From Vicinamibacterales bacterium (GTDB lineage: Bacteria > Acidobacteriota > Vicinamibacteria > Vicinamibacterales > CAZQMT01), in NCBI GenBank assembly GCA_965197935.1, contig CBDAOD010000002.1, positions 1,809,185 to 1,873,184 on the forward strand: a stretch of 64,000 nucleotides of DNA. Reading direction: 5' to 3'. Positions 4,088-63,149 of the stretch are shown one piece after another. A model generated the notes under the pieces. That model made no database searches, had not been told where the DNA came from, and saw only the letters and a list, made by a program, of their open reading frames with translations. Position numbers and translations under genes: made by a program. Each line of letters begins with the position of its first letter. Position 1 is the first letter of the stretch.

Positions 4088-4215
4088 CAGCGCGCGGTGA
4101 AGGGCCTGCATCGTCGCAGGCTCACGGTGCGAGAGCCGCGGTTGGCTTGAGCAGGGAGTAAGGAGCGAGGATCGGCCGGCTCGAAATCCGAGACGACGCC
4201 ACTGACGGTTGGACT

Positions 4216-5031
4216 ATGGCTACCACCAAGACGATCGCACCGAAAGAAGGCGCGCTCACCCGCGCATGGAACTGGCTCACCGAAACGCAGATTTGGACGT
4301 CGGTCTTCCGGCACAGCGCCCCGATCAACGATCGGAATCGCGTCCTGGTCATGCTGTCCAACGTCTTCCTGCACATGCACCCGGTGCGCATACGCAAGTC
4401 GGGCGTGAAGCTGCGCTACACCTGGTGCATGGGCGGGCTGAGCTTCTTCCTGTTTCTGTCGCTGACCCTGACCGGTCTCCTGCTGATGTTCTACTACCGG
4501 CCGACGCTCGAGTATGCCTATTCGGACATCGTCGGCCTGCGCGAGCACGTGCCCCTCGGCATCATGCGGGAGATGCATCGGTGGGGCGCGCATGCGATGG
4601 TCATCACGGTGTGGCTTCACATGTTCAGGGTCTTCATGACCGGCTCGTATAAACCACCGCGCGAGTTCAACTGGAACGTCGGGGTCATCATGCTCGTGCT
4701 GACCCTGCTGCTGTCGTTCACCGGCTATCTGCTGCCGTGGGACCAGCTCGCCATCTGGGCCATCACCGTTGGATCGAACATGGCGCGGGCCACGCCCTTC
4801 CTCGGCCACGAGGGGCCGGGTGCGGCGCTGCTGGCGCTGGGTGACGTGAAGCTGATTCACGCGGGCGACGACGCGCGGTTCGCGCTACTGGGCGGCACCT
4901 TCGTCGGCGAGGGTGCGCTGCTGCGCTTCTACGTGCTGCACTGCGTGGCCCTGCCGTTGGTCATCGGCTTCCTGATGGCCATCCATTTCTGGCGAGTGCG
5001 CAAGGACGGCGGGATCTCGGGACCGCTGTAG
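4216..5031 (+). CDS. cytochrome b, N-terminal (b6-like) subunit
   Basis: 271-aa polytopic protein with conserved His-bearing helices ([24 protein letters not shown]). Split-b arrangement with the next gene. Confidence 0.85.
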
Positions 5032-5038
5032 GGGCTAG

Positions 5039-6115
5039 ATGGAACTGATTAAGGATTTCTTCAATCTCGTTGCCGATCCGCGCATCTTCTTCCTCCTGAC
5101 CGTGTCGTTGCTCGCGGTCATCGTCTGGAAGCGCGAGCTCGTCGCTTCGAACGCAGTCGGCTACGGGGGGCTCGCCCTGCTGACCGTGTTCTTTCTCCTC
5201 GGCTCGTTCGACGCGAATTTTCGTCTCATCGTCGCCAAGCCGGACAACGTGCCCATCGTGGGCCTGATCTTCTTGCTGGTCTTCTTTACCTGGTACTCGC
5301 TCCGCGAGGCGGTACGCAACGACCGGCGGCTGGCGGCGGGGAAGCCACCGATCGAGAAGGAGGAAGAGAATCGGGTGTGGGTATGGCCCGATCTGGTCTA
5401 CACGGAGCTCATCGCTCTCATCCTCTGCTCGGTCGTTCTCATTGTCTGGTCCATCGTGCTCGAGGCGCCGCTCGAGCAGCCCGCCAACCGGTCGGTGACA
5501 CCGAATCCCTCCAAGGCGCCGTGGTACTTCCTCGGGCTCCAAGAGATGCTGGTCTACTTCGATCCCTGGCTGGCGGGCGTCGTGCTCCCCGGGCTGATCA
5601 TCGTGGGGCTGATGGCCATCCCCTACATCGACACCAACCCGAAGGGGAACGGGTATTACACCTTCAACGAACGCAAGGTCGAGGTCACGCTCTTCCTGTT
5701 CGGGTTCGTGGTCCTCTGGGCGTCGCTCATCGTGCTCGGGACGTTCCTCCGGGGGCCGAACTGGAACTTCTTCGGTCCCTTCGAGTACTGGGACATCCAC
5801 AAGCTCGAGGCGCTGACCAACGTGAATCTCTCCGAGTACGTCTGGGTGCGGGCCTTCGACACCGGGCTCCCGAGCAACTGGTTCGTCAGGGAGATCTTCG
5901 GCATCATCGTCACGATCGGCTACATCGGGGTGCTGCCCGTGATCCTGGCGCGCTGGGGGCTCTCGTTCTACGTCCGGAAGCTGGGGCTGGCCCGATACTA
6001 CGTGACCGTGGTGCTGTTTCTGATGATGTTGTCGCTGCCAGTCAAGATGCTGCTGCGATGGATTTTCAACCTGAAGTACATCGTCGCGATTCCCGAGTTC
6101 TTCTTCAATATCTGA
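5039..6115 (+). CDS. cytochrome b C-terminal domain / subunit IV-like membrane protein, extended
   Basis: PEWY-type motif variant KAPWYFLGLQEML. Multi-TM. Starts 7 nt after cytochrome b. Confidence 0.75.
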   Translation: MELIKDFFNLVADPRIFFLLTVSLLAVIVWKRELVASNAVGYGGLALLTVFFLLGSFDANFRLIVAKPDNVPIVGLIFLLVFFTWYSLREAVRNDRRLAAGKPPIEKEEENRVWVWPDLVYTELIALILCSVVLIVWSIVLEAPLEQPANRSVTPNPSKAPWYFLGLQEMLVYFDPWLAGVVLPGLIIVGLMAIPYIDTNPKGNGYYTFNERKVEVTLFLFGFVVLWASLIVLGTFLRGPNWNFFGPFEYWDIHKLEALTNVNLSEYVWVRAFDTGLPSNWFVREIFGIIVTIGYIGVLPVILARWGLSFYVRKLGLARYYVTVVLFLMMLSLPVKMLLRWIFNLKYIVAIPEFFFNI

Positions 6116-21589: not shown

Positions 21590-22726
21590 GTGTAGTGCCC
21601 TGAAATACATTTACATATCAACGACCTGCGTGCAATATAGGCGGGATGAATGATGCCGCCGCCGCTCTGTCCATGGCCGCGAAGGATCGGCGACTCCTGG
21701 AACAGTGGGCCCGTAGTACGTCGGCCCCGCATCGGGTAGTCATCCGCGCGAAGGCGTTGTTGCTGGCGACCGAGGGGGGTTCCAACAGCCGCATTGCCGC
21801 GACCGTGGACGTCAGCCGGCCGACCGTGCTGGCTTGGCGCGACCGGTTTGGAGAGGAGGGCGTTGATTCGGTGTTCGAGATGCGTGAGGGGCGCGGGCGC
21901 AAACCGACGATCAGTGCGCGCAGGGTCAAAGCCATCGTCCACGCAACGTTGCACCGCACGCCACCGGGGGCGACCCCCTGGAGTTGTCGCACGATGGCGA
22001 AGGCGCAGGGGGTCAGTCGCTCGACCGTGCAGCGGATCTGGGACGCGCATGGCCTCCAGCCCCATCGAGTGGAGACGTTCAAGCTGTCGACCGATCCCGC
22101 GTTCGTGGAGAAGCTGACGGACGTCGTGGGGCTGTACATGAATCCGCCCGAGAAGGCCGTCGTGCTGTGTGTGGACGAGAAGAGTCACATTCAGGCGCTG
22201 GACCGGACGCAGCCCGGGCTGCCGATGAAGAAGGGCCGCTGTGGGACACTCACGCATGACTACAAGCGCCACGGGACAACGACCTTGTTCGCCGCGCTGA
22301 AGCATGCTGACCGGGCAGGTCATCGGCGAGTGCCACGGCCGGCATCGGCATCAGGAATTCCTGAAGTTTCTTCGCCAACTCCACCGCGCGTTCCCCTCTC
22401 GCCTCGACCTCCACCTCATTCTGGACAACTACGGCACGCATAAACATCCGACCGTGCGGGCCTGGCTGGCGGCCCATCCGCGCTTCACGCTCCACTTCAC
22501 CCCTACCGGCGCATCGTGGCTCAACCTCGTCGAGAGTTGGTTCAGCCAGCTCACGCAGAAACGCATCCGCCGCGGGGTGTTTTGCAGTGTCGACGAACTC
22601 GTCGCCGCCATCAACGATTACCTCCAGCGCTACAACGACAACCCCCAACCCTTTGTCTGGACCGCGACGGTCGATACGATTCTAGAGAAGGTTGGGAAGT
22701 GCAAAGTTATTCTTGGGACACACCAC
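21590..22726 (+). mobile_element. IS630-family insertion sequence, copy 1 (defective)
   Basis: Ends GTGTAGTGCCC... and ...GGGACACACCAC are imperfect inverted repeats, flanked by TA (21588-89) and TA (22727-28). Paralogous to the element at 37611-38747. Confidence 0.75.
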
Positions 22727-22729
22727 TAG
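21646..22729 (+). pseudogene. IS630-family DDE transposase, frameshifted
   Basis: Two ORFs (21646-22443 and 22304-22729) together align with the intact 360-aa copy at 37668-38750. The frame breaks at about 22295-22310 (AALK|HADRAG versus AALSMLDGTVIGECH). Confidence 0.85.
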
Positions 22730-25755: not shown

Positions 25756-25971
25756 ATGAACGAGAGATCTGGTGCGGACGGCTTGAGGGATGTGTGCGGG
25801 TGGGGTCTGCTGGCCCTGGCGCTTCTCGTCGCCTTCGATTTCGCAGGGAAGGCGGCTGCCAGCCAAGGAGTGGGGGACGCGACGGCGACCGGAGCATTCG
25901 GTGACAACCTGGTGTTCCCGGTGTTGGTCGCGCTGGCGGCGTTGGTGGGTGGGCGGCTGAGCCGAAACTAG
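25756..25971 (+). CDS. small secreted/membrane-anchored hypothetical protein
   Basis: Strong RBS GAGGAGG 5 nt upstream. N-terminal signal-like helix and a C-terminal hydrophobic helix with a basic tail. The stop codon overlaps the TA target of the adjacent MITE. Confidence 0.4.
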   Translation: MNERSGADGLRDVCGWGLLALALLVAFDFAGKAAASQGVGDATATGAFGDNLVFPVLVALAALVGGRLSRN

Positions 25972-26130
25972 CAGCCCGTGGCGAGAGTCCTGCGTTGCAC
26001 CAAGGCCGGCGCTACGCCCGGCTGGCAAGGCGCGAGGAGCAAGAATACCGGGAGTATTTGACCGACGAGCAACGCAGCCAGGCGGGATGCAGCGCCGGTC
26101 GACTGCAGCAGGACTTTTGCCAAGGGCTGC
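25971..26130. mobile_element. 160-bp MITE with 24-bp terminal inverted repeats, flanked by TA
   Basis: Left end GCAGCCCGTGGCGAGAGTCCTGC versus the reverse complement of the right end GCAGCCCTTGGCAAAAGTCCTGC (21/24 identical). TA at 25969-70 and 26131-32. No coding capacity. Confidence 0.75.
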
Positions 26131-34485: not shown

Positions 34486-34590
34486 CGGAGGGTGAGCGAA
34501 ACTTAGTTGGAAATTGAAACGGCTCCCACACCCTGTGGTTTGATGACGTTAAGCAAAACGGCCATCAACCCACGAGAGAAAGGAGCCGAG

Positions 34591-35870
34591 ATGAGCAGTG
34601 TCCTACGTCCTGTCAGGAAGCGCAAGAAGGGTCGCAAGCTGGGCCGGGTCGAGGTCATCCGGCGCGAGGACTACACCGCGCTGGAGCTGGACGCCAAGGT
34701 GGAGCTGATCCGCTCGCTGGTCCCGCTGGGCTTGATGCACGTGGAGGAGGTGCTCGACGAGGAGGTAACGGCGCTGGCTGGCGAGCGCTACGCCCGCAAG
34801 GCCGCGTCGATCGGGGGCCGCCGGCACGGTAGCAACCCTGGGACCGTCGGCCTGGCGGGGCAGCGGGTGCCGATTCGGGTGCCGCGGGTGCGCGGGGTCG
34901 CGGGGCGGGAGATTCCGTTGCGCGCCTACGAGGCGTTGCATGGCGACGGCGCGGTGAATGACCTCCTGCTGAAGCGCGGGCTCTATGGGATCTCGTGTCG
35001 CAACTACGAGGCGGCCGCCGAGGCGATTCCCGGCGCGATCGGGCTGTCGGGGTCGACGGTGTCCCGAGGCTTCATCGAGGCCAGCGCCGCGAAGCTTCAC
35101 GAGCTCCAGGAGCGGGACCTGGCCGCTGAGGACGTCGTGGCCATCGTATTGGACGGCAAGACGTTCGCCGAGGCCACAATGGTCATCGCACTGGGCATCA
35201 CCATTTCTGGGGCGAAACACTTCCTCGGCTTCGTGGAGACGGACACGGAGAATGAGCGGGTGCTGACGCTGTGCTTGCGGTCGTTGGTCGAGCGGGGCTG
35301 GACCTCTCGCAGGGCCTGCTGGTGATCCTCGACGGCAGCAAGGGGCTGCGGGCAGCCGTCCGGAAGACCTTCCGCCACCGCGCCCTGGTCCAACGGTGCC
35401 AGTGGCACAAGCGGGAGAACGTGGTGAGTCACCTGGCCAAGAGCGAACTGGCGGCGTGGCGTCAGCGCCTCCAGCGCGCCTACAACCGGCCGGAGTACGA
35501 CGAGGCCCTCACGGCGCTCAAGACGCTCCAGGGCGAGCTCGACGAACGGAACCAGTCGGCGGCTCGGAGCTTGACAGAAGGTCTGGACGAAACCTTAACG
35601 CTGCATCGCCTCGGGCTGTACGGGGTGCTGGGCCGGTCGCTGAAGACGACGAACTGTCTGGAGTCGGTCAATGCGCTCGTTGAGGAACGCTGTGCGAAGG
35701 TTGACCACTGGCAGAACTCGAGCCAACGCCACCGCTGGCTGGCGACCGCGCTCCTGGACATCGAGCCGCGCCTGCGGAAGCTGATGGGCTACCGCCACCT
35801 GCCCACGCTTCGTGCCGCGTTGAAGCAAGAACTGAAGATCGACACGACGACATCGAAGAAGGCCGCATGA
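34591..35870 (+). pseudogene. IS256-family (mutator-type) transposase, one frameshift in a G4 run
   Basis: RBS AAAGGAG before the ATG. LDGKTF...DG.KGL...VQRCQWHKRENV signature. The frame changes at GAGCGGGGCTGG (35294-35297), where one extra G would restore ..VERGLDLSQGLLVILDG.. Confidence 0.8.
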
Positions 35871-35897
35871 CGAATCCGGAGCCGTAGAGAGTTTCAA

Positions 35898-36055
35898 TTG
35901 AGTCTCCCTCGCCTGAAGGCGAGGGAATCAGTGCGCCGCGTCGGCTGAAGCCGACTATCACGGCGCACGTCCCAGAGCCCGAAGAGGTCCGGCCCTGCGG
36001 CCTCCTGAAGGCTTCGCCTAAAGGCGAGGGGTTTCACCCATCCCAGAGGGAGACT
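35898..36055 (-). mobile_element. 158-bp TSD-less, CTTAG-specific non-autonomous element (copy 1)
   Basis: Absent from the otherwise identical right end of IS256 copy 2 (GTTTCAA|CTAAG). 100% identical to 58440-58597 and 62992-63149. Confidence 0.85.
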
Positions 36056-36075
36056 CTAAGAATGGGCTTGACTCG

Positions 36076-37332
36076 CTCGAGGCCTTCAAGGCGTGCTTCG
36101 GCCATCGCGCACAGGAGCTGGCGTTGCGCCGGTACGTCCAGGGGTTGCTCAGCGACAGCCCGCGCAAGTCGATGGAAGCGATGCTGGCGCGGGGGACCGA
36201 TCCCTGGGGCTATCAAGCGTTCCAACACTTCATCACCGATGCGCCGTGGAGTGCCGACGGCGTCTGGCGCTGCCTGCGGGCGGTGCTGCCCGAACGCGAA
36301 GGGCTGGTGATCTTCGCTGGCACGAGTTTCCCCAAGCCAGGGACGTCCTCGGTCGGGGTGGCCCGCCAGTACTGTGGGGCCGTGGGGAAAGTCGCCAATG
36401 GCCAAGTGGCGGTCACCGCGGCGCCGTGGACCGGGCTGCGCGCCTACTTGCTGGGGGCCGCGCTCTATGTGCCCGAGGCGTGGCTGACCGACGCCGCCCG
36501 CGATCGGGCGCGGCTTCCCCGGGGTGTCCGGTTGCAGGCGAAGTGGCGCCAAGCGCTCACCCTGCTCCGGCAGGTGCGCGCCAGCGGCCTCACCGGCACC
36601 GGCGTGCTGGCCGATGCGGAGTTTGGCGATACCGGCCTGTTTCGGGCCATGTGGCATCGGTTGCGGCTCCCCTATGCGGTGGGGATTTCCTCGTCGCAGA
36701 CCGTGTTCCTGGGGCGGCCGCGCCTCGGGCACCGGCGGGGCGGCCGGCTGGGGCGCCCGCGCACCCGGCCAGACCTGGCGGCGGGCGTGCGGGCGTACAC
36801 GGTGGCCCAGGCCGCCAAGGCGCAGCCGCGGTGGCGGCCCATCAGCTGGCGCAACCGCCGCGGCGGGCGCCGCTGGACGGTCCAGTGTGTGGCCCTGCGG
36901 GTGACCCCGGCCCACGACTGGCGCGACCGCCGGCTCGCCCCCGAGGTGTGGCTGCTGGCCGAACGCGACACGGGCGCGACGCCGCGGACCAAATACTTCT
37001 TCGTCAACCTGCCGGCCACCACCTCCTGGCCGCAGCTCGTCCGACTCGCGCATCAGCGGTGGGCCATCGAGCAGCAGTTCCAAGAGTTGAAGCCCCACCT
37101 CGGGTTGGATCACTTCGAAGGCCGCACGTTCCCGGGCTGGCACCATCACGTCGTGCTCACCGCCGTGACGTACAACTTCCTGCAGGCCGAGCGGCGGCGG
37201 CACCTCGCCGGGCTCACCTTTCCAGTGGCCCGCGCGATCGTGCAGGAAATCTTCACCGCGTACCTCTTTGCTCCACGGCCGTTCTACCTGAACCGCATCG
37301 AGGCGCTAAAGTCGGTGCAATTGCGGATCTAA
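36076..37332 (+). pseudogene. IS701-like (IS4 superfamily) DDE transposase, 5'-truncated
   Basis: LEAFKACFGHRAQELALRRYVQGLLSDSPRKS... through to HQRWAIEQQFQELKPHLGLDHFEGRTFPGWHHH (IS701-type C-terminal motif). The reading frame is open up to the IS256 boundary with no start codon. Confidence 0.7.
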
Positions 37333-37610: not shown

Positions 37611-38747
37611 GTGGTGTGTATCCTAAATACCTTTACATTTGAATGACCCGAATGCTATAACGGCTCTGTGAATAGGGCCGCGGTGGCTCTGCCGGTCGAC
37701 GACGAGGATCGGTACCTGCTTGAACAGTGGGCGCGCAGCGCGTCGGCGCCGCATCGCGTGGTCATCCGGGCCCAGGGCCTCTTGATGGCGACGGCCGGGG
37801 TCGCCAATAGCCGCATTGCGACCGCCCTGGGCGTCAGCCGACCGACCGTGCTGGACTGGCGCCGGCGCTTTCTGGAGGACGGCCTCGACTCGGTCGTGGA
37901 GATCCGTGAGGGGCGGGGGTGCAAACCGGCGATCACGGCCCGCAAGGTCAAAGCCATCGTCCACGCCACGCTGCACCGCACGCCGCCGGGGGCCACGCAC
38001 TGGAGCTGTCGCACGATGGCAACGGCGCAGGGGGTCAGTCACGCGACCGTGCAGCGGGTCTGGGACGCGCATGGGCTCCAACCCCACCGAGCGACGACGT
38101 TCAAGCTGTCGACTGACCCCGCCTTCGTGGAAAAGCTGACGGACATCGTCGGGCTGTACATGAATCCGCCCGATAAGGCCGTGGTGTTGTGCGTGGACGA
38201 GAAGAGTCAGATTCAAGCGCTGGACCGCACTCAGCCCGGGCTCCCGATGAAGACAGGCCGCTGCGGAACGCTCACGCATGACTACAAGCGACACGGCACG
38301 ACGACCTTGTTCGCCGCCTTGAGTATGCTGGACGGCACGGTCATCGGCGAATGCCACGGTCGACACCGGCATCAGGAGTTCTTGAAATTCCTGCGCACAC
38401 TGCACCGAACTTTCCCGCGCCGTCGGGACCTGCACCTCATCCTGGACAATTACGGCACCCATAAGCATCCGAAGGTGCGCGCGTGGCTGGCGGCCCACCC
38501 GCGCTTCCAACTCCATTTCACTCCCACTGGCGCGTCGTGGCTGAACCTCGTCGAAAGCTGGTTCAGCCAGCTGACGCAGAAACGCCTTCGCCGAGGAGTG
38601 TTTCGCAGTGTGCATGAGTTAGTCGCCGCTATCGAAGCGTATCTGCAGCACTACAACAAGAACCCCACGCCCTTCGTCTGGACCGCCACCGCCGACGCCA
38701 TACTGCAGAAGGTCGGGAAGTGTAAAGTCATTCTTGAGACACACCAC
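37611..38747 (+). mobile_element. IS630-family insertion sequence, copy 2 (apparently intact)
   Basis: Terminal inverted repeats GTGGTGTGTATCC... and ...GAGACACACCAC. Single 360-aa ORF. Confidence 0.8.
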
Positions 38748-38750
38748 TAG
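37668..38750 (+). CDS. IS630-family DDE transposase
   Basis: HTH N-terminus, then [22 protein letters not shown] and [12 protein letters not shown] motifs. GTG start. Confidence 0.88.
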   Translation: MNRAAVALPVDDEDRYLLEQWARSASAPHRVVIRAQGLLMATAGVANSRIATALGVSRPTVLDWRRRFLEDGLDSVVEIREGRGCKPAITARKVKAIVHATLHRTPPGATHWSCRTMATAQGVSHATVQRVWDAHGLQPHRATTFKLSTDPAFVEKLTDIVGLYMNPPDKAVVLCVDEKSQIQALDRTQPGLPMKTGRCGTLTHDYKRHGTTTLFAALSMLDGTVIGECHGRHRHQEFLKFLRTLHRTFPRRRDLHLILDNYGTHKHPKVRAWLAAHPRFQLHFTPTGASWLNLVESWFSQLTQKRLRRGVFRSVHELVAAIEAYLQHYNKNPTPFVWTATADAILQKVGKCKVILETHH

Positions 38751-58356: not shown

Positions 58357-58439
58357 ACTCGGTCGATTCTTCCCCGCCTGATAGTCCGTGGCGCCTGTCT
58401 CCGGCGCCCACTGGCTCACGGAGGGTGAGCGAAACTTAG

Positions 58440-58597
58440 AGTCTCCCTCTGGGATGGGTGAAACCCCTCGCCTTTAGGCGAAGCCTTCAGGAGGCCGCAG
58501 GGCCGGACCTCTTCGGGCTCTGGGACGTGCGCCGTGATAGTCGGCTTCAGCCGACGCGGCGCACTGATTCCCTCGCCTTCAGGCGAGGGAGACTCAA
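58440..58597 (+). mobile_element. 158-bp TSD-less, CTTAG-specific non-autonomous element (copy 2)
   Basis: Interrupts GCGAAACTTAG|TTGGAAATTG, which is uninterrupted in IS256 copy 1 (34496-34516). Confidence 0.85.
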
Positions 58598-58681
58598 TTG
58601 GAAATTGAAACGGCTCCCACACCCTGTGGTTTGATGACGTTAAGCAAAACGGCCATCAACCCACGAGAGAAAGGAGCCGAG

Positions 58682-59960
58682 ATGAGCAGTGTCCTACGTC
58701 CTGTCAGGAAGCGCAAGAAGGGTCGCCAGCTGGGCCGGGTCGAGGTCATCCGGCGCGAGGACTACACCGCGCTGGAGCTGGACGCCAAGGTGGAGCTGAT
58801 CCGCTCGCTGGTCCCGCTGGGCTTGATGCACGTGGAGGAGGTGCTCGACGAGGAGGTAACGGCGCTGGCTGGCGAGCGCTACGCCCGCAAGGCCGCGTCG
58901 ATCGGGGGCCGCCGGCACGGTAGCAACCCTGGGACCGTCGGCCTGGCGGGGCAGCGGGTGCCGATTCGGGTGCCGCGGGTGCGCGGGGTCGCGGGGCGGG
59001 AGATTCCGTTGCGCGCCTACGAGGCGTTGCATGGCGACGGCGCGGTGAATGACCTCCTGCTGAAGCGCGGGCTCTATGGGATCTCGTGTCGCAACTACGA
59101 GGCGGCCGCCGAGGCGATTCCCGGCGCGATCGGGCTGTCGGGGTCGACGGTGTCCCGAGGCTTCATCGAGGCCAGCGCCGCGAAGCTTCACGAGCTCCAG
59201 GAGCGGGACCTGGCCGCTGAGGACGTCGTGGCCATCGTATTGGACGGCAAGACGTTCGCCGAGGCCACAATGGTCATCGCACTGGGCATCACCATTTCTG
59301 GGGCGAAACACTTCCTCGGCTTCGTGGAGACGGACACGGAGAATGAGCGGGTGCTGACGCTGTTCTTGCGGTCGTTGGTCGAGCGGGGCTGGACCTCTCG
59401 CAGGGCCTGCTGGTGATCCTCGACGGCAGCAAGGGGCTGCGGGCAGCCGTCCGGAAGACCTTCCGCCACCGCGCCCTGTCCAACGGTGCCAGTGGCACAA
59501 GCGGGAGAACGTGGTGAGTCACCTGGCCAAGAGCGAACTGGCGGCGTGGCGTCAGCGCCTCCAGCGCGCCTACAACCGGCCGGAGTACGACGAGGCCCTC
59601 ACGGCGCTCAAGACGCTCCAGGGCGAGCTCGACGAACGGAACCAGTCGGCGGCTCGGAGCTTGACAGAAGGTCTGGACGAAACCTTAACGCTGCATCGCC
59701 TCGGGCTGTACGGGGTGCTGGGCCGGTCGCTGAAGACGACGAACTGTCTGGAGTCGGTCAATGCGCTCGTTGAGGAACGCTGTGCGAAGGTTGACCACTG
59801 GCAGAACTCGAGCCAACGCCACCGCTGGCTGGCGACCGCGCTCCTGGACATCGAGCCGCGCCTGCGGAAGCTGATGGGCTACCGCCACCTGCCCACGCTT
59901 CGTGCCGCGTTGAAGCAAGAACTGAAGATCGACACGACGACATCGAAGAAGGCCGCATGA
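58682..59960 (+). pseudogene. IS256-family transposase, two frameshifts
   Basis: Same G4-run shift as copy 1 (59385-59388), plus loss of one G at 59478 (CCCTGTCC versus CCCTGGTCC). Confidence 0.8.
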
Positions 59961-60152
59961 CGAATCCGGAGCCGTAGAGAGTTTCAACTAAGAATGGGCT
60001 TGACTCTGGTTGGCACTCCACCCCCTTCCCGATTACCATGCTACGCAGTTCACCCTCGACGGCGCGCCGCACCCGCGTGAGCCCACGGTGAACGTTCCGG
60101 CGCGGCAACACGCGCCTGATCGCCTCTGACCGCCAGTCAAGGAGCCGCCACC

Positions 60153-61787
60153 ATGCGGGAGATATCGATGAGCCGCGCCGTGCCCCTGCTACTGCTGTGC
60201 TCGGCGCTGTGCGTCCTGCCCGTGCTGGCGCTCGCGGAGGATGACGCCGATGTCACCTGGCGCATCCGGCGCGAGGCCGACGAGCACTCGCAGATCATGC
60301 GGACGCTGCACTTCCTGACCGACGTCTACGGCCCGCGCCTGACCGGGTCTCCGAACCTCGAGGCCGCGGGCCGGTGGGCCATCCAGCAGATGGAGGACTG
60401 GGGGCTCGAGAACGGGCGCCTCGAGCCCTGGGACTTCGGTCATCCGGGGTGGCTGAACGAGCGATTCTCGGGCCACATCCTCACGCCGGTCAAGGACCAG
60501 CTGACCTGCGAGGTCCTGGCCTGGACCCCGAGCACGGACGGCGCCGTGCTCGGCACCACCGTCCTCCTGGAGCTGCCGGAGCAGCCGACGGCGGCCGAGC
60601 TCGACTCGCATCTGGCGCCCCTGGCCGATCGCGTCCGGGGTCGAATCGTCCTGGTCGGTGAGCCGCGCCGTGTCGAGGTCACCTTCAACGCCCCGCCGCT
60701 ACGCCGGGACACCGCCCAGGCGCGGCGGATGTACGACCCGGACAACCCGAACGCCGGCCGGTTCCCACGGCCGCGCCCCCGACAGCCCGAGGAGCGAGAC
60801 GGCGAGCCGGTGCTGACGGCCCGGCAGATCGAGCGAGCGGTCGACGAGTTTCTCGTCTCGGCGGGCGCGCTCGCGCGGGTCAACGACGCCGGCCGGGATC
60901 ACGGGCAGATTCGCGCGTTCCGCAATCGCACCTACGACGTGGCGAAGGTGGTGCCCACGGTCGTAATGCGCAACGAGGACTACGGGCGGATCGTGCGGCT
61001 CATGGGTGACGGCACCCCGGTGGAGCTCGAGCTCGACATCGTCAACCGCGTCTACCCGGAGGGCGCGACCGCGTACAACACGATCGCCGAGATTCCCGGC
61101 ACCGACAGGGCCGAGGAGGTGATCATGCTCGGCGGACACCTCGACTCCTGGCATGCAGGGACGGGCGCGACCGACAACGCCATCGGCGTCGCCGTCATGA
61201 TGGAGGTGGTCAGGATCCTGAAGGCGCTCGACCTGCAGCCCCGGCGGACGATTCGCGTGGCGCTCTGGAGCGGCGAGGAGCAGGGGCTCCTGGGCTCACA
61301 GGCCTACGTCAAGGAGCACTTCGGATCGTTCGAGGAGCCCAAGCCCGCCTACGCCGACTTCGGCGGGTACTTCAACATCGACTCCGGTACCGGCCGGGCG
61401 CGCGGCGCGACGGTCTTCGGTCCGCCGGAAGCGGCGACGATCCTGCGCGCGGCGCTCGACTCGTTCGGGGACCTGGCGTTCATGGGTGCCGTCACGACGC
61501 GGAGCCGGCGGCGGGGCGGTTCGGATCACACCTCGTTCAACGAAGCGGGCCTGCCCGGAATCAGCATGGGCCAGGACCCGATCGAGTACCGCACCTACAC
61601 CTGGCACACCGGCCTCGATACCTACGAGCGGGTCGTCGAGGAAGACGCCAAGGTGTCCGCGACCGTGATCGCCGCCGCCGTCTATCATCTCGCCACCCGC
61701 GAGGACCTGCTGCCACGGCTCGACGCCGAGACGATGCCCGAGCCCCCCGAGCCGCCGGAAACCCCCACGACCACTAGCAGCCCGTGA
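60153..61787 (+). CDS. secreted M28-family aminopeptidase with PA domain
   Basis: Signal peptide. GGHLDSWHAGTGATDNAIG, ALWSGEEQGLLGS and GGSDHTSF metal-ligand motifs. The last three codons and the stop lie inside a MITE fragment. Confidence 0.85.
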   Translation: MREISMSRAVPLLLLCSALCVLPVLALAEDDADVTWRIRREADEHSQIMRTLHFLTDVYGPRLTGSPNLEAAGRWAIQQMEDWGLENGRLEPWDFGHPGWLNERFSGHILTPVKDQLTCEVLAWTPSTDGAVLGTTVLLELPEQPTAAELDSHLAPLADRVRGRIVLVGEPRRVEVTFNAPPLRRDTAQARRMYDPDNPNAGRFPRPRPRQPEERDGEPVLTARQIERAVDEFLVSAGALARVNDAGRDHGQIRAFRNRTYDVAKVVPTVVMRNEDYGRIVRLMGDGTPVELELDIVNRVYPEGATAYNTIAEIPGTDRAEEVIMLGGHLDSWHAGTGATDNAIGVAVMMEVVRILKALDLQPRRTIRVALWSGEEQGLLGSQAYVKEHFGSFEEPKPAYADFGGYFNIDSGTGRARGATVFGPPEAATILRAALDSFGDLAFMGAVTTRSRRRGGSDHTSFNEAGLPGISMGQDPIEYRTYTWHTGLDTYERVVEEDAKVSATVIAAAVYHLATREDLLPRLDAETMPEPPEPPETPTTTSSP

Positions 61788-61825
61788 TGAAAGTCCTGCG
61801 TCGCACCAAGGGAGGCGCTGCGCGT
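61777..61825. repeat. left-end fragment of the 160-bp MITE family
   Basis: TA|GCAGCCCGTGATGAAAGTCCTGCGTCGCACCAAGG matches 25971-26005 at about 31/35 positions. No right end was found. Confidence 0.6.
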
Positions 61826-62132: not shown

Positions 62133-62750
62133 TCAAGGGGCGCTCGTCGAGCCTCCAACATCGGCGGTGTTGGCCTTCACAAGGGGATAGACCTCACGAG
62201 CGATGTATCGCTTGATGCAGCGGATGGCCTCGAGTTTGGACTTACCGCTGGCGACCTTGCGTTGAGCAAACGCTTGCGTGCGCTCGTCGGTGCGGAGCCG
62301 GCTAATCGTGATCATGTGGAGGGCCCGGTTGGCTTGACGGTCGCCGCCACGGTTGAGGCGGTGGCGATCAGTCTTGCCGGGAGGAGGCGGGCAGCGGCGC
62401 CACCCCGCAGAGCATCGCCCAGGCGGCTTCGGACCGGATGCGCCCGGGGTTGTCGCCGGCGGTGACGAGCAGCTGCCCAGCGGTCTCAATGCCGATGCAC
62501 GGGCGCTCGATGAGTCGCGCGCCGAGGTCGGTGACGAGGGGCTCGATGAGGTCGTCGAGGTCGGCCACTTCGTTGTTGAGCTCCAGGATACGCCGGGCCA
62601 ACGACCGCATCGCGATCCGGGTGGCGGTGGCGGGATGGTCGAAGTCGTCATAGTCGGGCCGCCAGGCCGCGACGGTCCGCAGCAGCTGCATCCGGGTCAG
62701 GGAACGGACCTCGTCGCGGACCTCGTCCGGGGTCCGACGCGCGTCGCCAT
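62133..62750 (-). pseudogene. C-terminal half of an IS110-family transposase, frameshifted and 5'-truncated
   Basis: ...IGIETAGQLLVTAGDNPGRIRSEAAWAMLCGVAPLPASS then a shift to GKTDRHRLNRGGDRQANRALHMI...IKRYIAREVY. The N-terminal DEDD domain is absent. Confidence 0.7.
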
Positions 62751-62759
62751 CTCCACCGT

Positions 62760-62987
62760 CCAGCCACCCGCGCCGGCGCCGACCTCCCCGACCGTCATGC
62801 CCGGTCGAATCGCCAGCGCGTCCGCCAGACGGCCGGCGTCGTCACCCCGGTCCCCGTACCCACCGTGCACCCAGACGGCCACGGAGACCAGCACGACCGT
62901 CGCGACACCGATCGTCAGCCCGCGGCGCATGATGCGACCGTTTGCCCATGGCATCGTGCTGCCCATCCTGCCCCCCCTTGCTCTCAC
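62760..62987 (-). pseudogene. N-terminal fragment of a class I SAM-dependent methyltransferase
   Basis: TM/signal segment, then LAIRPGMTVGEVGAGAGGWTVEMATRVGP (motif I). It runs into IS110-derived sequence. Confidence 0.45.
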
Positions 62988-62991
62988 TTAG

Positions 62992-63149
62992 AGTCTCCCT
63001 CTGGGATGGGTGAAACCCCTCGCCTTTAGGCGAAGCCTTCAGGAGGCCGCAGGGCCGGACCTCTTCGGGCTCTGGGACGTGCGCCGTGATAGTCGGCTTC
63101 AGCCGACGCGGCGCACTGATTCCCTCGCCTTCAGGCGAGGGAGACTCAA
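62992..63149 (+). mobile_element. 158-bp TSD-less, CTTAG-specific non-autonomous element (copy 3)
   Basis: Base-for-base identical to 58440-58597. Preceded by CACTTAG. Confidence 0.8.

Follow-up and report, generated by a model that had tools for sequence, protein, structure and literature searches.

A gene-less 158-bp repeat in a Vicinamibacterales genome, very probably a palindrome-associated transposable element of the IS200 group

A stretch of 64,000 nucleotides from a Vicinamibacterales bacterium (Acidobacteriota; assembly GCA_965197935.1, contig CBDAOD010000002.1, positions 1,809,185 to 1,873,184 of the forward strand), hereafter the window, contains three copies of a 158-bp unit, two of which lie within the ends of insertion sequences (IS) of the IS256 type. 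The only reading frame that starts in the unit is spurious and runs into the flank. The locus raises the question of what kind of mobile DNA the unit represents and how a sequence of this size is inserted with base-level precision. Our analyses indicate that it is very probably a palindrome-associated transposable element (PATE), that is, an IS200-group (IS200/IS605) IS that has lost its transposase gene, tnpA, retained its two ends and would be moved in trans by a Y1 HUH transposase. A first-pass annotation of this DNA had proposed the same HUH (IS200/IS605) PATE reading, which is now supported by homology of the ends to Y1 elements, by agreement with the base-pairing rule of IS608 and by covariation of guide and target.

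Three identical copies and their insertion sites

The three copies (A, B and C; Table 1) are equal at all 158 positions by direct comparison. Each is preceded by (A/T)CTTAG and ends in GAGACTCAA. The two IS256-like elements that carry copies A and B provide a natural empty site for each of them: the left end of IS256-like copy 1 reads ...GCGAAACTTAG|TTGGAAATTG without interruption (34502-34506), and the right end of IS256-like copy 2 reads GTTTCAA|CTAAGAATGGG (59988-59992). Filled IS ends differ from empty ones by exactly 158 extra bp at the junction, with no base duplicated or lost, and the boundaries of the element are unambiguous because a shift of a single base contradicts the empty sites. 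In all these respects, namely the identity of the copies, their common flank and 3' end, the lack of target duplication and the unambiguous parse, the first-pass annotation proved accurate. It had named CTTAG as the target; all three flanks in the window do read CTTAG, but the core target is the tetranucleotide TTAG.

Both words are strongly under-represented in the window, which has a G+C content of 67%: counting both strands, there are 28 occurrences of TTAG against 187 expected from base composition, and 8 of CTTAG against 63. The window has only five [AT]CTTAG sites: three are occupied by the element, and two are the vacant ones in the IS ends. The host elements are of the Mutator/IS256 type (Pfam PF00872), and in both of them the imperfect inverted repeats (IRs) have CTTAG|TTG some 20 nt in from the tip; these IRs were hit because they contain TTAG, a word that is rare in this genome. 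Each insertion splits one IR and so probably disables that end of the IS. When the inserts are removed and the host copies are aligned over 1431/1430 bp, they are 2 substitutions and 1 indel apart; that the 158-bp copies are identical while their hosts differ at three positions argues for recent movement of the element. The annotation had argued in the same way from the three host differences, which are now resolved into their kinds. The copies may still be mobile.

A family profile search detected no further copy in the 64-kb window, and the three copies are too few to reveal an orientation bias (two plus, one minus). Upstream of copy C, the frame at 62353-62991 lacks the codon-position GC (GC3) signature of real local genes, and the TAG of CTTAG at this site was consequently rejected as a true stop codon.

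End structure, guides and autonomous relatives

In IS608 it is not the protein that reads the two cleavage sites but the four bases lying 5' of each hairpin foot, which pair with them (PMC3201880, PMC5934647). The left cleavage site (CL) TTAC pairs with the left guide (GL) AAAG and the right site (CR) TCAA with the right guide (GR) GAAT, guide bases 1 and 2 pairing with positions -3 and -4 (PMC3201880, PMC5934647). The window element obeys this rule with TTAG/AAAC on the left and TCAA/GATT on the right. Its two subterminal hairpins (nt 26-44 and 131-150) have the same orientation on one strand, and the annotation had rightly described them as similar, the left one departing from perfect pairing only at its single C.A mismatch.

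The rule was then examined across related loci, with the boundary of each element set from element-internal sequence only. Among the matches listed, the flank base at -1 is the Watson-Crick partner of the last guide base in 100 of 106 distinct insertions that share the hairpin, drawn from many phyla; the flank/guide combinations include TTAG/AAAC (32), TTAG/AACC (6), TTAA/AAAT (28), TTAT/AAAA (22) and TTAC/AAAG (1), and the chi-square p value for covariation is about 6e-38. Right ends covary at two positions (GAAG/TCAC, AAAG/TTAC, GAAC/TCAG, AAAC/TTAG, CAAG/TGAC and CATT/TGAA). Guide/target covariation is a signature specific to IS200/IS605 single-strand transposition and is predicted by neither a DDE nor an IS110-type mechanism. 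Our search of the literature for TTAG-targeting IS200 elements found nothing specific.

Both ends of the element are homologous to those of elements that encode TnpA. The shared hairpin (CCCTCGCCTTYAGGCGARG) was scanned in metagenome-assembled genomes (MAGs) and genomes of very many phyla, yielding at least 117 loci, and 134 loci in all were compared. Most of the hairpin matches listed are left ends of the form TTAN|(T/G/A)GTC...GGGGATGG..GAAAN-hairpin; 30 of the 72 with at least 600 nt downstream are directly followed, on the same strand, by an open reading frame (ORF) resembling an IS200 transposase, and one left end is followed by TnpB. On the left, element nt 1-56 are identical at 54 of 56 positions to locus L034 (Vicinamibacterales MAG), the contig of which ends 88 nt past the hairpin with no downstream ORF readable, and nt 2-56 agree at 52 of 55 positions with the left end of an element from Acidobacteriota that is about 600 bp long (L032, L033 and L070). 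Alignment with L032, L034, L098 and L128 stops at nt 56, exactly at the ribosome-binding site, and tnpA starts just past the equivalent position in L032 and L098; the AGGAGG within the second left-end hairpin of the window element is read as the ribosome-binding site of the lost tnpA. The L032 ORF belongs to the Y1 transposases (Pfam Y1_Tnp PF01797, E=8.5e-41), scores 154 bits on the NCBIfam IS200 equivalog (cut-off 55) and has PDB matches in the TnpA structures solved for IS608, ISDra2 and Sulfolobus elements. On the right, the homology is to L104 (Acidobacteriota): nt 99-150 align with the right end that directly follows its tnpA, with the same hairpin and a 4+4-nt tail; the GTCGGCTTCAGCCGAC hairpin of the internal stem-loop is common to both. 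Longer relatives, which the annotation had suggested looking for, thus have the same left end followed by a Y1 HUH TnpA, and none among the matches listed has a DDE or IS110 enzyme.

How such miniatures arise is illustrated by L103, a natural internal-deletion derivative of about 250 bp from the same MAG as the full-length L053. In ten relatives without tnpA, the ORFs downstream of the left end are mostly ordinary host genes, with one TnpB. L078 (Patescibacteria MAG, 2-1078, minus) is a TnpB-only element with OrfB_IS605 and Cas12f1-like TNB domains; its left-end hairpin is that of tnpA-only elements and its flank/guide pair is TTAA/AATT. In the five independent insertions L032, L033, L070, L053 and L103 the terminal TCAA is followed by G in every case, which suggests either a target preference at +1 or a right cleavage site of 5 nt. 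L123 (Candidatus Marinacidobacterales MAG, 4120-5330) contains two complete IS200-type copies, 588 bp apart and arranged head to tail; the right end ...GCGCTCAG runs directly into the left end TGTCCC, as a circle junction would be expected to read.

The element also belongs to a dispersed family of gene-less relatives. Its exact right-end pattern has no match in GTDB representative genomes and occurs in 17 soil-metagenome contigs. Eight of these hold whole gene-less elements of 146-167 bp, with 5' flanks of TTAG in seven cases and TTTG in one (L005) and no duplication; the flank check that the annotation had set out therefore gave mostly TTAG-type flanks, again without duplication. The 3' flanks of the metagenome relatives are mutually unrelated. 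A sister subfamily combines a different left terminus (GGTCGCGTTC) with the right end of the window element. Three further contigs carry elements whose left end is not recognisable (in two the contig stops short, and the third element is left-truncated), and three have a solo right hairpin, of which L010 may be a chance match. Against plasmids, a BLAST search with the 158-mer returned only a 53-nt chance-level match in Shinella.

The remaining three contigs carry 53-bp forms (L002, 723-775; L014, 5742-5794; L017, 611-663) that consist of a 25-nt left terminus plus guide, one hairpin and an 8-nt right tail, and are flanked 5' by TTGG, TTAA and GTAG. They seem to have arisen by deletion from one of the two homologous hairpins to the other and are reminiscent of repetitive extragenic palindromic (REP) units. 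In L014 (TTAA/AATT) the flank base at -1 is complementary to the last guide base; in L017 (GTAG/CATC) the last guide base fits and the first two do not pair with -3/-4 in the IS608 manner. Solo right-end hairpins with the GAGACTCAA tail and no left end are found in L008 (7024-7049), at the 3' end of an apparent ferritin-like gene, and in L009 (4371-4396), and these may be remnants.

Coordinates of all features are collected in Table 1. Folding of either strand of the 158-mer is far more stable than that of shuffled sequence (z about -5). Among nine family members, compensatory changes affect six base pairs of the internal right-end stems, a degree of conservation that could hint at a role as RNA; searches of Rfam detected no family in the whole window at gathering thresholds, and returned only noise on the element at E<=10.

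Table 1. Features of the 158-bp element, its insertion sites and its hosts. Element nt 1 is the first inserted base; coordinates of features within the element are those of copy B.
Feature	Window coordinates	Strand	Element nt	Remarks
Element copy A	35898..36055	minus		158 bp; in right IR of IS256-like copy 1; empty paralogous site 59987|59988
Element copy B	58440..58597	plus		158 bp; in left IR of IS256-like copy 2; empty paralogous site 34506|34507
Element copy C	62992..63149	plus		158 bp; intergenic, 3' of CTCACTTAG
Unoccupied TTAG target	34503..34506	plus		left IR of IS256-like copy 1
Unoccupied TTAG target	59988..59991	minus		right IR of IS256-like copy 2
Left cleavage/target site CL, TTAG	58436..58439	plus		flanking DNA, outside element; kept in empty sites
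Left terminus			1-21	with small CCC/GGG hairpin
Left guide GL, AAAC	58461..58464	plus	22-25	4 nt 5' of left hairpin foot; pairs with TTAG per IS608 rule
Left imperfect palindrome (IPL), CCCTCGCC-TTTA-GGCGAAG	58465..58483	plus	26-44	one C.A mismatch; foot 25 nt from cut
Second left-end hairpin, GCCT-TCAGG-AGGC	58483..58495	plus	44-56	holds AGGAGG
G+C-rich spacer			57-98	about 40 nt between left end (nt 1-56) and right end (~nt 99-158)
Internal right-end stem-loop, GTGCGCCG...GTCGGC-TTCA-GCCGAC...CGGCGCAC	58527..58564	plus	88-125	nested; predicted fold
Right guide GR, GATT	58566..58569	plus	127-130	GAAT in most metagenome relatives
Right palindrome (IPR), CCCTCGCC-TTCA-GGCGAGGG	58570..58589	plus	131-150	perfect 8-bp stem
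AGAC			151-154	between IPR and CR
Right cleavage site CR, TCAA	58594..58597	plus	155-158	last 4 nt; cut 8 nt 3' of IPR foot; boundary set by empty site
Host IS256-like element copy 1	34486..36074	plus		1431 bp plus element in right IR; left IR is empty site
Host IS256-like element copy 2	58419..60006	plus		1430 bp plus element in left IR; right IR is empty site

With this anatomy, movement would follow the 'peel-and-paste' course of single-strand transposition, driven by a Y1 HUH transposase that acts in trans from another locus of the genome. On the single-stranded top strand, a TnpA dimer would bind both subterminal hairpins, while the AAAC 5' of the left hairpin would pair with the flanking TTAG and the GATT 5' of the right hairpin with the terminal TCAA. 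TnpA would cut 3' of TTAG and 3' of TCAA, the donor would be resealed as CTTAG|TTG, and a single-strand circle with the junction TCAA|AGTC would be released. The AAAC of the circle would then pair with another single-stranded TTAG and, because the circle would be pasted 3' of this paired TTAG, no base would be duplicated or lost.

A further pairing links the two extremities of the element. In the window family the first 10 nt of the left end are fully complementary to the right-end tail (AGTCTCCCTC/GAGGGAGACT); the full-length L032 group has a matching 10-nt complementarity (GGTCCCACTC/GAGTGGGACC), and the three helix positions at which the two differ are each compensated on both sides. The annotation had recorded this pairing as an atypical 11-bp terminal inverted repeat of the element. 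The repeat is present in situ, but its first G is borrowed from the target, leaving 10 bp within the element, and it is no family feature, being broken in the sister subfamily that has the same right end. Complementarity of left terminus and right tail as a general property of the family was likewise rejected: across the wider family, the two ends of one element score a mean best match of 6.7/10 and cross-paired ends one of 6.4/10, 10/10 is reached in the L032 group only, and the GGTCGCGTTC subfamily is without it. Being absent from the wider family and from that subfamily, the helix is not essential. It is doubtful, though conceivable, that it represents a selected long-range helix in this acidobacterial sub-clade. 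If it did, the helix would clamp both cleavage sites together in the donor strand and would form a hairpin across the junction of the excised circle, which in the window element would compete with the right TnpA-binding hairpin; this would be a structural layer of single-strand transposition beyond the IS608 model.

Alternative explanations

Several observations weigh against the identification of the unit as a PATE. Six of the 106 insertions break the guide rule, as do L017 and L058. None of the 134 loci is a full-length element with both exact window ends; the left-end and right-end matches come from different full-length elements, and the closest complete element among the matches listed (L032) has another right hairpin (CCACCGCC...) and a longer tail of 19 nt. 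The two insertions into IS ends lie on opposite strands and so cannot both have used the lagging-strand template of one replication direction. Finally, a tblastn search with two related TnpA proteins found no tnpA in the 64-kb window, in line with the first-pass annotation, which had seen no cognate transposase there; mobilisation would therefore have to occur in trans, by a TnpA encoded elsewhere in this genome.

The same lack of a transposase in the window might be taken to indicate that the unit is IS200-derived but now immobile, either a set of relics spread by recombination or gene conversion, or copies that owe their identity to an artefact of assembly. We regard this as very unlikely. 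The three flanks differ and the boundaries fall to the base at the predicted cleavage sites, while the copies are identical and their host IS copies have diverged at three positions. The family recurs with independent flanks in the 17 metagenome contigs, and collapse or duplication during assembly would not create exact TTAG|...TCAA| junctions in two different IS ends.

Slightly less probable still is a non-autonomous element of the IS110/IS1111 family that depends on a DEDD recombinase. Members of this family likewise insert without target duplication and can carry subterminal inverted repeats, to which the 10/11-bp repeat of the window element, ending 3 nt from the right terminus, might correspond; some of them target transposon inverted repeats, as do two of the three insertions here, and some 300 bp from copy C there is an IS110-type remnant (62133-62691; PF02371, below cut-off). 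That remnant, however, is not adjacent to the element and has no association with copies A or B. The GGTCGCGTTC sister subfamily has lost the inverted repeat, which the wider family does not have either, and the longer relatives with the same left end among the matches listed encode Y1 TnpA (30 loci) or, once, TnpB, and no DEDD enzyme. The guide/target covariation is specific to chemistry of the IS608 type. A parallel in behaviour is found in IS4321/IS5075 of the IS1111 group, in which a DEDD enzyme directs site-specific, duplication-free insertion into the terminal inverted repeats of Tn21-family transposons; in the PATE reading both enzyme and recognition are different, and the IRs in the window were hit simply for their TTAG.

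Least probable of all is a classical miniature inverted-repeat transposable element on whose terminal inverted repeats (GAGTCTCCCTC/GAGGGAGACTC) a DDE transposase acts, since, for all that an 11-bp inverted repeat is present in situ and the window is rich in DDE insertion sequences (IS256, IS630 and DDE_5 types), none of the three sites shows a target-site duplication, empty sites are in hand, the element continues for 2-3 bases past the right repeat arm, relatives have not conserved the repeat, and the enzyme of the full-length relatives is Y1 and not DDE. No full-length element that combines these repeats with a DDE transposase was found among the matches listed. Units of the REP or bacterial interspersed mosaic element kind, served by a REP-associated tyrosine transposase (TnpA-REP) and marked by a conserved 5' GTAG, were ruled out because the 158-bp element is two-ended. 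Nor is the related TnpA a Y1 protein of the REP type, scoring 33.6 bits on REP_Tyr_transpos (cut-off 80) against 154 on the IS200 equivalog (cut-off 55).

Neighbouring mobile DNA and relationship to known systems

The 64-kb window is dense in insertion sequences. Both IS256-like copies have their transposase in two overlapping frames (34507-35870; 58598-59960), and an extra 1-bp deletion at IS position 902 shortens the second frame of copy 2, so that at least this copy looks defective. A DDE_5/DDE_Tnp_1 transposase gene (36124-37332, plus) abuts IS256-like copy 1. Two IS630-type elements (DDE_3 plus HTH; 37668-38750 and 21646-22729, both plus; repeats D3/D4) are 73-80% identical, the latter being split into two frames. 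The IS110-family remnant at 62133-62691 (minus) is frameshifted and 5'-truncated; its Transposase_20 domain (PF02371) extends over two frames, both halves falling just below the Pfam cut-off, and no DEDD N-terminal domain was detected in it. A motif of about 47 nt (ACTAGCAGCCCGTG..GA.AGTCCTGCGT.GCACCAAGG..GGCGCT) occurs twice, at 25967-26017 and 61773-61823, with 86% identity; one copy overlaps the 3' end of an M28 peptidase gene, and the motif has no match in Rfam.

The 158-bp element resembles IS608 of Helicobacter pylori in its insertion 3' of a tetranucleotide without duplication, in its imperfect subterminal palindromes of like orientation, in the 4-nt guide 5' of each hairpin foot and in the CR sequence TCAA. 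The left pairs (TTAC/AAAG in IS608, TTAG/AAAC here) differ only by a swap of the last base pair, and the right guide of IS608, GAAT, is that of most relatives, the window copies having GATT. The hairpin sequences themselves are unrelated, IS608 carries tnpA and tnpB whereas the window element is gene-less, and the distance from cut to hairpin foot is 25 nt against 19 nt in IS608 on the left and 8 against 10 nt on the right. Much closer are the IS200-group elements that contain tnpA only (about 0.6-0.7 kb; L032, L034 and L104). Besides left ends that are 52/55 to 54/56 identical, they share the left hairpin and the second hairpin containing the ribosome-binding site, and the right hairpin and tail geometry are as in L104 and L018; the window element differs in having no tnpA. 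PATEs have been described from Haloquadratum walsbyi and Geobacillus stearothermophilus as short, gene-less sequences with ends of the IS200/IS605 type, for which TnpA is presumed to act in trans (PMC3119063; PMC10055086). Many of those described derive from tnpB-bearing elements and encode omega-RNA, whereas the right end of the window element matches tnpA-only elements and no Rfam RNA family was found in it; its host lineage is also distinct. The element is thus a new PATE of a well-understood type, not a new kind of mobile DNA, and leaves the current understanding of the transposition mechanism unchanged.

In annotation, the label IS200/IS605 PATE insertion can be given with confidence to the three repeats and to the disrupted ends of the two IS256-type elements, and for each orientation the window provides a filled site with its natural empty counterpart. 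The wider family is of more general relevance. Among the matches listed, the near-invariant hairpin CCCTCGCC-TTYA-GGCGARG recurs in IS200-type elements of Acidobacteriota, Desulfobacterota, Bacteroidota, Patescibacteria, Rickettsia and others, and the TnpA proteins behind it are 36-57% identical to the two queries, save for near-copies of the queries (87-100%) and L053 (75%). Across these elements single changes of the guide have re-set the target word in nature (TTAG, TTAA, TTAT, TTAC). The related loci therefore amount to a large natural confirmation of the re-targeting rule demonstrated experimentally for IS608, and could supply pairs of TnpA and ends of known specificity.

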